Shown one piece after another: positions 2,384 to 57,751 of a stretch of DNA of 64,000 nucleotides; position 1 is the stretch's first letter; each line of letters begins with the position of its first letter. The position numbers and the translations under genes were made by a program. The stretch lies in assembly GCA_000004985.1 (NCBI GenBank), contig GG738852.1, one strand, 5' to 3'. The DNA comes from Naegleria gruberi (Eukaryota). The notes under the pieces were generated by a model. The model did not search any database and was not told the origin of the DNA. It saw nothing but the letters and a program-made list of their open reading frames with translations.

Positions 2384-3814
2384 ATGAGTGAATTGACGAA
2401 ACTCTTTGAGGATGAGAACTTGAAGAAGAACATTTCATCCCTCCTTTTCTTTATGAGTGAAGTCGAGAAGATAGTAGAAAATCCCACTAGTTATGACCTT
2501 CATATCGCTCTGTATATGGGTGTTGAAAAATTGAAAGATTTTCGATTAAGAACCAAACAGTATAAATTCTGGAAATTCGAGAATGTTATTCCTTTGGATG
2601 TCTATACTGTTACTTCGAAGGAGTGTATTTTAGATGCAAAGCTAACTAAGAATGTTATTTGTACAGAATTGATGGAAGAAGAAAGTGAGAAAGCCAGGGC
2701 TGAGCTCTTGCAAAATGAAGACAGCAAGCAAAAGAACTCGGGCAAAAATAAGAAGAATTCACTTACTAGCAAGGAAAGGAAGAAAACAAGTTCAACAGAC
2801 AACTCAAAGTTAGCTACTCCAGAAAGAAGAGAAGATGTCTCAAAGGAATCAAGGTCTAACTCCAAAGAGAAAAAGGAAAAAGAGTGTTCGAAACCAAATG
2901 TCTCAACAACAATTGTTCCAGTGAGAGAGAATGAAAGTATTCCCAAAACCGACAGTGTTAGAAAGGAAATAACAGGGTCTTTACATACCAATGAACAAGA
3001 AGGTAATCCTTTACCTCTTGCTACAACTTCCATTGATACTCAACTAATATTAAAAGTCATGAATAGAAGATTTGATGCTATTGAAGGAGAATTTGGTGCC
3101 TTCAAAACTGGGTTTGATGAATTAGAAAAAAGATTTGGTGCTTTAGAAGAAAGATTTGGTGTTTTAGAAGAAAGATTTGATGTATTAGAAGAAAGATTTG
3201 ATGTATTAGAAGAAAAATTTGATGTATTAGAAAAAAGATTTGATACAATGGAAAATAGAATCTCTTCTGCAATTGGTATGCTTTATGAAATGAGTTTAGA
3301 GCAGATGTTAAAAGATGAAGGCTTTGAGGTCGAATGCAACGTTGTTTATGACGAGAAAAAATTTGGCCCTCAATTTGACAAGTTAAAGAAAGCCAAGACT
3401 TTAAAAAATACCTGGAATAATTGTTTGCGCAATTTAGAACAACAAAAGAGAATTTCTACAACTCAAAGGTATTCCCTTTCTTTCTACTCTCCATCAATTG
3501 AGTTTAACTTTATTGTTAGAGATAATGAAAGAGTTACAACCCTAGTTGTTGAGGCATCCACTAACAACTTGACAGGAAATGCTCTTATTGTTAAGATGCT
3601 CCAATTGGAACGACAAGTAAGATTCTTCCAGGCTTGTAATTGTAATAATTTAGATTACGTAGCATTTATATCCCCAAGCTTGTTTACTAACACAAATGCT
3701 GAAATGTCAAAACTAATAACTGAGTTTCCAGGAGTATTTGAGAATTTAAAAAACTACAAAGCAAAAGGCAGGCTGTTCTTCAACAGAAAAGGAGCAAGGC
3801 TAAAAATTGAATAA
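2384..3814 (+). CDS. Hypothetical Lys/Ser-rich protein with a central coiled-coil built from tandem heptads (RFDVLEE) and a conserved-looking C-terminal globular region
   Basis: ATG at 2384, TAA stop. Long uninterrupted ORF. Internal 21-nt tandem repeat array (3067-3256). Confidence 0.7.
   Translation: MSELTKLFEDENLKKNISSLLFFMSEVEKIVENPTSYDLHIALYMGVEKLKDFRLRTKQYKFWKFENVIPLDVYTVTSKECILDAKLTKNVICTELMEEESEKARAELLQNEDSKQKNSGKNKKNSLTSKERKKTSSTDNSKLATPERREDVSKESRSNSKEKKEKECSKPNVSTTIVPVRENESIPKTDSVRKEITGSLHTNEQEGNPLPLATTSIDTQLILKVMNRRFDAIEGEFGAFKTGFDELEKRFGALEERFGVLEERFDVLEERFDVLEEKFDVLEKRFDTMENRISSAIGMLYEMSLEQMLKDEGFEVECNVVYDEKKFGPQFDKLKKAKTLKNTWNNCLRNLEQQKRISTTQRYSLSFYSPSIEFNFIVRDNERVTTLVVEASTNNLTGNALIVKMLQLERQVRFFQACNCNNLDYVAFISPSLFTNTNAEMSKLITEFPGVFENLKNYKAKGRLFFNRKGARLKIE
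3067..3256 (+). repeat. Nine tandem copies of a 21-nt unit (consensus agatttgatgtattagaagaa) encoding heptads R/K-F-D/G-x-L-E-E/K. Copies 3131-3235 are near-perfect.
   Basis: Direct reading of the sequence. Units stay in frame with the CDS 2384..3814. Confidence 0.85.
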
Positions 3815-3931
3815 GCTAAAATTTAGATTTATTTAGTTTATTTTTGGTAAATTATGAAAGAAATTGGATTAAGGATAAAGATCAAAATTATACAATAAAC
3901 TTAGAATTTCTTATGCTTTTTAACAAATGGT
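3775..3931. repeat. Copy 1 of a ~157-bp diverged direct repeat (its partner is 5337-5494). It contains the true 3' end of gene 2384..3814 ('...FFNRKGARLKIE*') and, on the minus strand, a relic copy of the helicase C-terminus ('...PFVKKHKKF*').
   Basis: By-eye alignment to 5337-5494 at roughly 85% identity. The 40-nt core acaataaacttagaatttcttatgctttttaacaaatgg is identical in both copies. Confidence 0.75.
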
Positions 3932-4003
3932 GATTAAATGAATTGATTGTTAGCAGAATAAGAGTAAACTTATTGGATTAGATGTTTCAGATCTTCCAAG
4001 AAA

Positions 4004-5245
4004 TTAATATTGTGCATCTTGGTTTTGAACATTTATGGGCTTAGTATTAAATTCTAACAATTGCTTATTTACAACCAAGAGTGTCTTCTCTACAAGTTCT
4101 CTTAATTCTTTAATTTCAAGTTCTACTATTTGCTTTGCGTCATTGAGATATGCTAGAGAGGCTTCATACTGATTTGAGGTGAAGAACAAGGATCTATTAT
4201 TTCTCACTGTATGAATAATTGCATAGCAATATAAATAAATGAACTTTGCACACCTTGTCGTGTGGCAACTAATCTCTAAATTACTACCATTTTTCAAACA
4301 ATCAACATGAATTCCATGAAAATACCCAGTTTTTTCCTTACTCAACAAACTCTCAGAAATGTTACTATACTGATCATCTCCAGGAAGCGATAGTATTTCT
4401 CCTTCCTCAACAAATCTAACCATACTTCCAGAAAGGCCAACTGTTGCACAGCCATGTTGCTGTTTTCCTGTATTCGAGAGAGTTGTTTCTCCAAAAGAGG
4501 CTATCATTTCACTATGACCAGACAATACACCTTGGAGCTTACTAGACACTTCACTGATTACAGCTTCCTTCTCATCTTCAATCAATACAACTTCTCCATT
4601 TTCCATAATTCTTTTGACAACACTTTCAGTAACAAACAAGTCCATGACACAAGAAGGTACACCTCCAATTACAGCACAATTATATGGACATGTTGCAAGT
4701 TTCTTTGGCAACTTGGGCACAACAATGTTTCCTACCAATTCAGGAGGCACACAAACCAGTGCTAAATCAACCTGCGAATACTCCTTATTTAAATCTCTTG
4801 TTTCACGAGTGAGTATTTGCCTAGACCTGAACAAACCAGTTTGAAAGTCAACTTTTTGTGCTCTTCCAACAATATGATCAGCTGATAAACCAAAGCAAGT
4901 AGTGATAAAGTTAACATTTCCTTCTAAATCTCCAGCTATTCGAGCAGTTGTTCCAATATAGGCTGTAAAATCAAAGCTAGACTTTACATGTACAAGTGTA
5001 TTATCATTTCTATTCTCAAGCATAATAGGTGTTCGGGAAACTGTTGAAACTCTGGGAAGCAGAAGAGTAAGATTTTCTTCCCACGAAGGAGGTTTGCTAG
5101 ATACCAAACCAGAGTCATCCACTAGGATTGATAGTCTTGAGAGCTTGGATACCTTTGGAACTATTGGAGTCTCTGATTTGAATTTAACAAGAATACCTTC
5201 TTTTGTTCTTGTAGCCTTTCTTGGGGGTTTTTTGAGTGAGGTCAT
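4004..5245 (-). CDS. Hypothetical intronless 413-aa protein. It has a possible chymotrypsin-fold (S1-like) peptidase signature: His 'LSADHIVG', Asp 'VDLALVCV', Ser 'GLSGSMV'.
   Basis: ATG at 5243-5245 and a TAA stop. The ORF is uninterrupted. Both ~157-bp direct repeat copies (R1 3775-3931, R2 5337-5494) lie downstream of its 3' end and upstream of its 5' end respectively. The peptidase assignment rests on motif order and spacing only. Confidence 0.6.
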   Translation of the reverse strand: MTSLKKPPRKATRTKEGILVKFKSETPIVPKVSKLSRLSILVDDSGLVSSKPPSWEENLTLLLPRVSTVSRTPIMLENRNDNTLVHVKSSFDFTAYIGTTARIAGDLEGNVNFITTCFGLSADHIVGRAQKVDFQTGLFRSRQILTRETRDLNKEYSQVDLALVCVPPELVGNIVVPKLPKKLATCPYNCAVIGGVPSCVMDLFVTESVVKRIMENGEVVLIEDEKEAVISEVSSKLQGVLSGHSEMIASFGETTLSNTGKQQHGCATVGLSGSMVRFVEEGEILSLPGDDQYSNISESLLSKEKTGYFHGIHVDCLKNGSNLEISCHTTRCAKFIYLYCYAIIHTVRNNRSLFFTSNQYEASLAYLNDAKQIVELEIKELRELVEKTLLVVNKQLLEFNTKPINVQNQDAQY

Positions 5246-5336
5246 GAAGAATTTTTTTTAGCTTATTCGATACTTGATTAAAATATCATCAGCATCTCTT
5301 AATAAAACAAAATGATTTTAAAAACAAAACACAAGT

Positions 5337-5494
5337 TGTTCTTCAATAGAAAAGGAACAATATCAAAAATTGAATAAGATTAATTTAGATTTAATTTAGT
5401 TTGTTTTTTTGGTAAATTGGGAAGGAGATTGGATTAAGGAATGATCAAAATTATACAATAAACTTAGAATTTCTTATGCTTTTTAACAAATGGT
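5337..5494. repeat. Copy 2 of the ~157-bp direct repeat. It contains a decayed copy of the 2384..3814 C-terminus ('FFNRKGTISKIE*', 5340-5378, + strand) and the true C-terminus and stop of the DEAD-box helicase (5464-5494, - strand).
   Basis: Alignment with 3775-3931 (see that entry). Confidence 0.75.
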
Positions 5495-7437
5495 TTGCTT
5501 TCACCACCATTGTTATCATTATTCCATGACGATGATCCACCATTGTTATTATCATTATTCCAGTTATTATTGTAACCACCACGGCCACCACCTCTACCAC
5601 CACGACCTCCTCTGAAGCCACCTCTTCCGCCTCTTCCACCTCTACCACCACGACCTCCTCTAAAGTCATCCTTTTCAGTATTGGCATCTAAGAATTCCAT
5701 CAAGCCTCTCTTCTTTGGATTGGCATCTTCAGTGGATTCTTCTTGATTCGATTCTTCTGCTTGTGGAGTTTCTTCTTCCTTATTAAATCTGTTGAATTTC
5801 TTATCGTTATTGAATGATGGTTTGTTGTCATTGTACTTGTCAAAGTTCTTCTTGAAACCACCTCCATTATTATTATTTTGGAAGCCACCTCTGCTCTTCA
5901 AACCAAATGATGATTTCAAACCTTCTTCATCAAAATCATTCATCTTGAAACCCAACTTTCTAGCAAACATATTGAAAACACTACCATAAGTATTAACAAG
6001 TTTGAAAGCATCTCTATTCAATTGATTATTTTGGACAATTGAACAAACTTCTCTTTGAATTTCATCCAATTCTCTATCAGTAACCTTATTATCAAGTTCA
6101 CCAAGCTTTTCCCAATCTTTTTCATCTTCCTTATCACTATTCAACATCATGTTAAAGTATTGGAGAGCAACTTCCTTTTCTCTTGGAGTCAAGAAGAGAA
6201 CTGAGAGACCCTTCTTACCAGCTCTAGCAGTTCTACCTGCTCTGTGGAAATAATCGGCAGGTTGTTCTGGAATATCAAATTGAACAATCAAATCGACATT
6301 AGGGAAATCGAGACCTCTGGCAGCAACGTTAGTAGCAACCAAAATACCAGGATTTCTATCTTCCATAAATTGGAAGAAAATTTCACTTCTCTTTTCTTGT
6401 GTCATATTTCCGCTCAATTGAACAACATTTCCAACTCCTGATGCATTTTGTAAAACAGTTGTTGCAAATTCTACTGACAATTTTGTACTGACGAAAGTAA
6501 TAATCTTCTTATCTACATTATTTCTCAAAACTGAAACGAGAGCAGCCATCTTTTTATCATTTGGAACTTCATAATATCTTTGTTCCAAAGTAGAAACTCT
6601 CTTTGAACCTCCATTATCAAGACCAAGTTTCATAATATCATTCTTTAAAGAAATATGAGCCAAATCATCAACCTTATCAGTCATTGTGGCAGAGAAGAGA
6701 TAGGTTTGACGTTGTTTTGGTAATTGCATAACAATCTTTTTCAAAGTTTCTTCAAAACCAGAATCCAACAAACGATCAGCTTCATCCAAAATAAAGAATT
6801 TAAGATGAGTGCAATCAAGACTTTCTCTTTGAATGTGATCCAAACATTTACCTGGTGAGGCAATTAAAACTCTAACAGTTGGATCAGCTAATTGAGCTTG
6901 TTCAACAGAAACCTTGTTACCTCCGATAACACAAGCAGCCTTATAATTAGTATGTTTTAACAACTTGTCAGCAACAGTTTGAATTTGCAAAGCCAATTCT
7001 CTTGTTGGAGCCAAAACCATAATATAAATACCATGAACATTCTTTTCATTTTCCATCATACAGGACAATGATGGAACCAAGAAGGCAAGAGTTTTACCTT
7101 GACCTGTAGCTGCTTGAGCAATAATATCCTTTCCCTTACCCTTTTCTCCGAGAGCATTTGGAATTGTTAAATGTTGGATAGCAGTCATGTATTCAAATCC
7201 GAACTCCTTCTTTAAAGATTTTAATAATTGTGGATGAATTCCTTCGACTTCTTCAAATTTCATTTTAGAAGCAACAGCATTACCTTCGGCATCTTCAGTG
7301 ACTGGAAGCACGATAGTTTCAACAGATTGCTTCTTTCTGAGTTGAACATTTTCAGAAGCATCAAGTGTTGAGACGTTACCACTGGCATCCTTCAATGTCT
7401 TGGTACCATTCTTGTTAAATTTGATGTGAGCAGGCAT
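5464..7437 (-). CDS. DEAD-box ATP-dependent RNA helicase with a C-terminal Asn-rich/RGG-repeat tail (nucleolar rRNA-processing type)
   Basis: ATG at 7435-7437. Walker A 'AQAATGQGKTLAF'. 'PTRELA', 'DEAD' (LDEADRLL), 'SAT', 'ARGLDFPNVDLIVQFD', 'HRAGRTARAG'. Tail (RGG)n 'GRGGRGGRGGRGGFRGGRGGRGGGRGG'. Confidence 0.9.
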   Translation of the reverse strand: MPAHIKFNKNGTKTLKDASGNVSTLDASENVQLRKKQSVETIVLPVTEDAEGNAVASKMKFEEVEGIHPQLLKSLKKEFGFEYMTAIQHLTIPNALGEKGKGKDIIAQAATGQGKTLAFLVPSLSCMMENEKNVHGIYIMVLAPTRELALQIQTVADKLLKHTNYKAACVIGGNKVSVEQAQLADPTVRVLIASPGKCLDHIQRESLDCTHLKFFILDEADRLLDSGFEETLKKIVMQLPKQRQTYLFSATMTDKVDDLAHISLKNDIMKLGLDNGGSKRVSTLEQRYYEVPNDKKMAALVSVLRNNVDKKIITFVSTKLSVEFATTVLQNASGVGNVVQLSGNMTQEKRSEIFFQFMEDRNPGILVATNVAARGLDFPNVDLIVQFDIPEQPADYFHRAGRTARAGKKGLSVLFLTPREKEVALQYFNMMLNSDKEDEKDWEKLGELDNKVTDRELDEIQREVCSIVQNNQLNRDAFKLVNTYGSVFNMFARKLGFKMNDFDEEGLKSSFGLKSRGGFQNNNNGGGFKKNFDKYNDNKPSFNNDKKFNRFNKEEETPQAEESNQEESTEDANPKKRGLMEFLDANTEKDDFRGGRGGRGGRGGRGGFRGGRGGRGGGRGGYNNNWNNDNNNGGSSSWNNDNNGGESKPFVKKHKKF

Positions 7438-25602: not shown

Positions 25603-25690
25603 TGATTCGGAGAACAAACATATTAGTTTACTTGTGTTGAAACACAACCTTTCTTGTTGCAATACACAAGTTGGAATTTGGCAATAATTA
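25603..25690. repeat. ~88-bp segment immediately 5' of the MANYSE start. It is duplicated as a direct repeat at 26071-26158.
   Basis: Direct comparison: 'ggagaacaaac[a/g]tatta[g/a]tttacttgt[g/a]ttgaaacacaa[c/t]ctttcttgttgcaatacacaagttggaatttgg'. Confidence 0.7.
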
Positions 25691-26070: not shown

Positions 26071-26158
26071 GACACAACAATGGAGAACAAACGTATTAAT
26101 TTACTTGTATTGAAACACAATCTTTCTTGTTGCAATACACAAGTTGGAATTTGGATTC
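26071..26158. repeat. Second, intergenic copy of the 5'-proximal repeat
   Basis: See 25603-25690. Confidence 0.7.
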
Positions 26159-37678: not shown

Positions 37679-37688
37679 TAAATTATTT

Positions 37689-46830: not shown

Positions 46831-46842
46831 AGATCTTATTTA

Positions 46843-57747: not shown

Positions 57748-57751
57748 ATAT

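Follow-up and report, generated by a model that had tools for sequence, protein, structure and literature searches.

A direct repeat surrounds a single gene within a 64,000-nucleotide (nt) stretch of Naegleria gruberi DNA (contig GG738852.1 of assembly GCA_000004985.1), which was analysed as a whole and is referred to below as the window. Three neighbouring genes are involved. The leftmost, on the + strand, encodes an orphan protein and is called here the + gene. Facing it on the minus strand are a gene named X and, beyond X, a gene for a DEAD-box RNA helicase. X thus separates the 3' ends of the two outer genes, and one copy of the repeat (A and B, from left to right) lies on either side of it. 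All feature coordinates are collected in Table 1.

Comparison of the window with itself by BLASTN returned this 174-nt repeat as the top-scoring dispersed repeat. Its two copies align over 177 columns with 85.9% identity and four gap openings (E = 4e-52; 1.4e-49 in a second BLASTN run), and they bracket X as the initial annotation had proposed. Both copies abut the intervening segment, copy A ending at 3931 and copy B starting at 5321, with 3932-5320 in between. The right boundary is sharp (…AAATGGT) and lies where it had been placed before, at 3931 and 5494, whereas the left one, previously set at 3775 and 5337, was found 17 nt further left. This left boundary is fuzzy and falls within A/T-rich sequence. 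Pairwise alignment revealed an exact core of 52 nt (3880-3931 = 5443-5494), where 40 identical nt had been suggested earlier. The match goes no further: when the flanks (3600-3757 and 5495-5700) were locally aligned with the segment ends, they scored no better than shuffled sequences. Apart from these two copies, BLASTN detected the module nowhere in the 64-kb window: there, the sequence is single-copy but for the duplication, and it is not repetitive.

Translation confirmed that each copy carries the ends of both outer genes, at equal spacing. In copy A, the + gene runs to its real stop (...KAKGRLFFNRKGARLKIE*, asterisks denoting stop codons), and the minus strand reads SPFVKKHKKF*, of which PFVKKHKKF* matches the real helicase end, ...SKPFVKKHKKF*. 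The copy A version lies behind an in-frame stop and is thus a non-coding relic. Conversely, copy B contains the real helicase end, and its + frame translates as KHKLFFNRKGTISKIE*, a decayed relic of the + gene end. Equal spacing of both gene ends in each copy means that the two stops must, at some time, have stood 86 nt from each other in a single sequence. Such a spacing is ordinary, as convergent gaps in this window range from 4 to 290 nt. Several convergent pairs of open reading frames (ORFs) have stops only 4-12 nt apart (37679-37688, 46831-46842 and 57748-57751), so that overlapping 3' ends seem to be routine in this genome.

Table 1. Position and content of the features around the 174-nt direct repeat.
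Feature	Coordinates	Strand	Description
+ gene	2384..3814	+	476 amino acids; annotated 'predicted protein [Naegleria gruberi]'; species-restricted orphan
Repeat copy A	3758..3931		Real + gene end (stop 3812-3814), 86 nt between stops, minus-strand helicase-end relic
Exact core, copy A	3880..3931		AATAAA on + strand at 3894-3899; helicase-end relic
Helicase C-terminus relic	3901..3930	-	PFVKKHKKF*, by translation; polarity from orthologues
Inter-repeat segment	3932..5320	-	1389 nt: 72 nt 3' flank, X coding sequence, 75 nt 5' flank
Gene X	4004..5245	-	413 amino acids; small family only in Heterolobosea; candidate triad H124/D160/S272 (GLSGS)
Repeat copy B	5321..5494		Decayed + gene end relic, helicase 3' flank, real helicase stop and last 9 codons
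+ gene C-terminus relic	5337..5378	+	LFFNRKGTISKIE*, by translation
Exact core, copy B	5443..5494		AATAAA at 5457-5462; helicase stop 5464-5466; PFVKKHKKF codons 5467-5493
DEAD-box RNA helicase	5464..7437	-	657 amino acids; Gly/Arg-rich (RGG-type) tail

For the helicase end, the direction of copying can be read from the orthologues. Their C-termini are ...KPAHKKHKKF in N. lovaniensis as well as in N. fowleri, and ...KKKKF in Willaertia. At the DNA level, too, the coding end (AAGCATAAGAAGTTCTAA) has been conserved, and as protein KHKKF* is kept across Naegleria. In the helicase this end is thus ancient, so that its counterpart in copy A must be the duplicate derived from it. Judged by these sequences, this is the one step in the history of the locus whose polarity is read directly.

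With about 20-28% G+C in the repeat, the region is A/T-rich, a composition in which chance similarity or an assembly artefact could produce an apparent repeat. Such an explanation is practically ruled out by the E value of 4e-52 and the 52-nt exact core, and by independent sequence data. Indeed, a Logan contig from run ERR1078381 (L001) is 99.5% identical to window positions 3917-6321 and spans the junctions 5494/5495, 5320/5321 and 3931/3932. The same junctions are thus present in a separate assembly, which excludes an artefact of assembly as the source of the arrangement. Moreover, the divergence between the copies (14%) exceeds that between the two assemblies (about 0.5%), so that the copies are not collapsed alleles.

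The two copies have diverged unevenly. In the gapped alignment, matches fill 73 of 91 columns over the left 88 nt, but 54 of 55 over the right 55 nt (Fisher p = 0.0016). The + gene relic shows 11 differences in 57 nt (3758-3814 against 5321-5377), and the helicase relic none in 31. These relics had been put forward as good internal clocks for dating the duplication, a role in which they fail: with 0/31 against 11/57 differences, the ages that they give contradict each other. The differences in the + gene relic occur at all codon positions, which is the pattern expected of a decaying coding relic. At 10 sites a G/C in copy A faces an A/T in copy B, against 5 sites with the reverse, and over the left part copy B is poorer in G+C than copy A (19% against 28%). 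Here copy B looks like the product of neutral decay towards A/T. From the same alignment, it would seem that the right part must have been held, whether by selection acting on both copies or through gene conversion. The core includes the AATAAA of Table 1, which in copy A is located downstream of both the + gene and X.

The gene enclosed by the repeat is absent from the N. gruberi protein set of the database searched, and its sole word-index match was the Logan contig. An exhaustive HMMER search gave seven further matches, of which six are relatives; the seventh, a mollusc cadherin-repeat protein ('dachsous-like'), was taken as spurious. The relatives comprise Willaertia magna KAL9642786 (34% identity, E = 6e-30) and KAL9654252, together with environmental sequences, one cluster of which includes an N. 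gruberi paralogue, NAEGRDRAFT_48741. The description of X in the initial annotation as an intronless gene with no recognisable family was thus wrong as to the family. As to the introns, X is indeed a single ORF, but so is every adjoining gene here, and the trait is not distinctive.

X conserves H124 (SADHIV), D160 (VDLAL) and S272 (GLSGS, a GxSGS motif), in the order found in chymotrypsin-fold proteases. Leaving aside the N. gruberi paralogue, in which the His and the Ser have been lost, all relatives that cover the Ser region have its motif, and all but one have the His and Asp. X itself has no Pfam match, and Trypsin_2 is matched by one relative, though at only E = 0.25. Nor did any protease emerge when the chain sequences of the PDB were searched by sequence and by profile. 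An AlphaFold model built from eight sequences had a mean predicted local distance difference test (pLDDT) score of 44.6, with only residues 100-175 reaching 57-76. With this poor model as a query, the top 50 Foldseek matches in the PDB were all PA-clan proteases (E about 1e-3 over 90-115 columns). Motif order and model together suggest that X is probably a chymotrypsin-fold (PA clan) protease-like protein.

Within X, the ERR1078381 contig departs from the window by three synonymous substitutions and one non-synonymous one; it also lacks 2 bp at 4476-4477, a deletion that shifts the frame at residue 257, before Ser272. The same N. gruberi-like sample (about 0.5% diverged) has a 2-bp deletion in copy B as well (5329-5330), and its version of the X paralogue (L009, 632-633) is frameshifted relative to the NEG-M protein. 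The indels in the X family of this sample may be assembly errors rather than signs of real pseudogenes.

G+C at third codon positions is 26% in X and 27% in the helicase gene. As X resembles its neighbours in composition and has heterolobosean relatives, it is best regarded as a native gene that moved rather than as a foreign one. Its relatives are found in unrelated genomic contexts, and no flanking repeats were found around X homologues elsewhere. TBLASTN of X, of the + gene and of the helicase against the window gave only self matches, X having no similarity to the other two. A simple tandem duplication of either flanking gene is therefore excluded; the inter-repeat sequence is neither present twice nor derived from one of them. 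A transposable element was also considered and rejected: the segment ends share no similarity in either orientation, and thus form neither terminal inverted repeats nor long terminal repeats (LTRs), X has no Pfam match, and the window holds no further copy of the segment. An inverted match of 15/16 was noted between the + gene stop region (3806-3821) and a sequence 10 nt upstream of the X start codon (5256-5271). As 8 of 300 shuffles did as well, it was taken as chance.

The product of the + gene is 100% identical to a database entry named 'predicted protein [Naegleria gruberi]'. No orthologue was detected among 5.8 billion proteins or in metagenome contigs, and a metagenome scan with its C-terminal domain gave no relatives. 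At least 8 tandem 21-nt units (3046-3280, + strand) encode seven-residue repeats such as RFDVLEE; they correspond to a coiled coil, and this stretch dominates the database matches of the orphan protein. A single-sequence structure model of the C-terminal domain reached a pLDDT of 34 and is useless for placing the last 19 residues. Unlike this gene, X (413 residues) and the helicase (657 residues) have no identical or near-identical N. gruberi protein entry. Both appear to be missing from the public annotation of the species.

The helicase matches the Pfam families DEAD (1.6e-43) and Helicase_C (1.5e-26), and shares 76% identity with its orthologue in N. lovaniensis, 74% with that in N. fowleri and 62% with that in Willaertia magna. 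It seems to be of the DDX18/HAS1 type, an assignment taken from the database names of more distant relatives rather than from a tree. In N. lovaniensis and N. fowleri, the helicase gene is followed by TrmO and tRNA synthetase genes, and in Willaertia it has yet other neighbours. Since these neighbours differ among the relatives, synteny is uninformative here. A pangenome study likewise omitted N. gruberi from its synteny analysis as too distant (PMC9928731). A metagenome scan with the helicase coding end returned 0 matches. In N. fowleri, a non-LTR retrotransposon (endonuclease and reverse transcriptase) lies directly after the helicase orthologue (L003, 12141-15959), and it is absent from the corresponding position in N. 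lovaniensis. Its presence in one species and absence from the other indicate that the 3' flank of the helicase has been hit independently by insertions.

The history that we favour, with a probability of roughly one half, is that a one-gene segment was placed between a convergent pair of genes at a staggered break, whose fill-in duplicated the shared 3' module; the insertion itself had already been proposed in the initial annotation. Originally, the helicase gene (DDX18/HAS1 type) and the orphan + gene would have been tail-to-tail neighbours, with their stops 86 nt apart and their 3' regions overlapping. The 1389-nt segment carrying X (3932-5320) would then have entered at a break whose single-strand cuts were separated by about 174 nt, the + gene being cut 57 nt before the end of its coding sequence and the helicase gene 28 nt before the end of its own. 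Filling in the overhangs would duplicate the whole shared module, leaving both genes with a complete end. The duplication of the module thus accounts for the survival of both genes after an insertion into their overlapping ends. Afterwards, the dispensable half, i.e. the + gene end in copy B, would have drifted towards A/T. The right-hand 55 nt would have stayed almost identical; in copy B they contain the helicase coding end, and in copy A, downstream of the + gene and X, they may be a 3'-end signal.

Several observations weigh against this history. No genome with an empty site was found, and the ancestor is only inferred; the sequenced relatives lack both the + gene and X at the helicase locus. 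No donor copy of X is known, the nearest relatives being 25-36% identical. The near-perfect right part requires an added assumption, whether selection or gene conversion. Finally, when copy A is removed, the + gene reads ...NY/D* across 3757/3932. A stop so near the junction would be expected if X had been resident from the start; under the insertion history, by our own estimate, its probability is only about 0.17. With X resident, templated break repair would have used copy B, in the helicase 3' region, as its source and placed a 174-nt duplicate of it 1389 nt off, at the very end of the + gene. The reading frame of that gene would have run on into the insert, adding a new 19-residue tail, and the apparent + gene relic in copy B would be the non-coding parent and not a relic. 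This also takes one event, fits equally well and does without a donor locus for X. Joining 3757 to 3932 gives ...AAC TAC/GAT TAA, a stop one codon on and minimal damage to the gene. The + gene is moreover a young orphan without orthologues, for which a recently acquired tail is plausible. However, the changes in copy A would then run mostly from A/T to G/C (10 against 5 sites), counter to the A/T-rich genome, and the start of the copied piece 28 nt inside the helicase coding sequence is left unexplained. Templated patches of this length are, from general knowledge, uncommon. On balance we hold this course of events to be unlikely, while still taking it seriously. A similarly tentative standing is given to two readings taken jointly: that the 55-nt core has been kept nearly identical in both copies because it signals 3' ends in either direction, by now for three genes, or that the last 19 codons of the + gene were captured from the duplicated antisense strand of the helicase 3' untranslated region. 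If true, this tail capture would be a dated, sequence-resolved birth of coding sequence from non-coding DNA.

X might also have been resident and the stretch 3932-5494 (X and copy B) duplicated in tandem, a later deletion having taken the first X together with the old + gene end. Only a 174-nt copy of the module would then be left, fused to the + gene. In general, local repeats arise most often by tandem duplication in which one gene copy is later lost, and the two boundaries suit this route, the sharp one at 3931/3932 as the duplication junction and the fuzzy left one as the deletion end. Two events are needed, however, the deletion must leave an open and tolerated reading frame, and a search of the window found no trace of a second X copy; we regard this sequence of events as rather improbable. 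Far less credible still is a processed retrocopy of X inserted by non-LTR retrotransposon machinery, which is capable of long target duplications. The segment is transcript-sized (75 nt, coding sequence, 72 nt) and has no intron, and non-LTR elements do exist in Naegleria, including the one right after the N. fowleri helicase orthologue. Yet there is no A-rich tract at the 3' junction, where the minus strand at 3932-3945 reads ...CATTTAATC, nor any A-run on that strand at 3932-3960, and this lack of a poly(A) remnant makes retroposition unlikely. No parent gene is known and the protein databases hold no close parent. The missing intron does not argue for it either, as the Willaertia homologue and the N. 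gruberi paralogue are also without introns.

Insertion at a staggered break, as favoured above, can be compared with known ways of duplicating sequence around a rearranged segment. Transposable elements are usually flanked by target-site duplications of 2-20 nt. Like these, the N. gruberi copies form a direct repeat of target sequence on either side of an inserted segment. However, at 174 nt the repeat is far longer, and terminal repeats, a transposase and a reverse transcriptase are all missing from the segment, of which the window holds no other copy. Gene relics, that is, decayed coding fragments in intergenic DNA, have been described in yeasts. The resemblance lies in short, recognisable remnants of coding ends in non-coding DNA beside intact genes, but the N. 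gruberi relics are only 9-17 codons long and form a reciprocal pair within one duplicated module.

Rearrangement breakpoints in Drosophila provide a third comparison. At these, fill-in of staggered breaks has left duplications of 46 bp to 1.9 kb (Ranz et al. 2007, PMC1885836); duplications of this kind at Drosophila inversions have also been described by Guillén & Ruiz (2012, PMC3355041). The 174 nt seen here fall inside the reported range of 46 bp-1.9 kb (PMC1885836). As in those cases, single-copy sequence including gene ends is duplicated at both edges of the rearranged segment, and of the two copies one keeps its function as the other decays. In one of the Drosophila examples, even the overlap between the ends of two genes is involved. 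The orientation differs: the N. gruberi copies are direct and surround an inserted 1.4-kb one-gene segment, whereas those of Drosophila are inverted and surround an inversion. Moreover, the host here is a heterolobosean amoeba, and no outgroup with the ancestral state is available.

Elsewhere in the window, a second dispersed direct repeat was found at 25609-25681 and 26082-26154 (73 nt, 94.5% identity, 473 nt apart). It apparently lies between large ORFs, matches no Rfam family and folds with an unremarkable energy. An Rfam scan of the whole window gave nothing.

Altogether, the locus is best described as the scar of a local DNA rearrangement of a known and fairly ordinary kind, which reveals no new mechanism. 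To our knowledge, such scars have been little described in this organism. The locus offers a clean, small example of how a compact eukaryotic genome takes up a gene between two tail-to-tail genes with neither being damaged, the overlapping 3' module being duplicated in the process. It also constitutes a marker of a size suited to the polymerase chain reaction for strain comparison within the N. gruberi complex, and it draws attention to an unannotated family of protease-like genes restricted to Heterolobosea.

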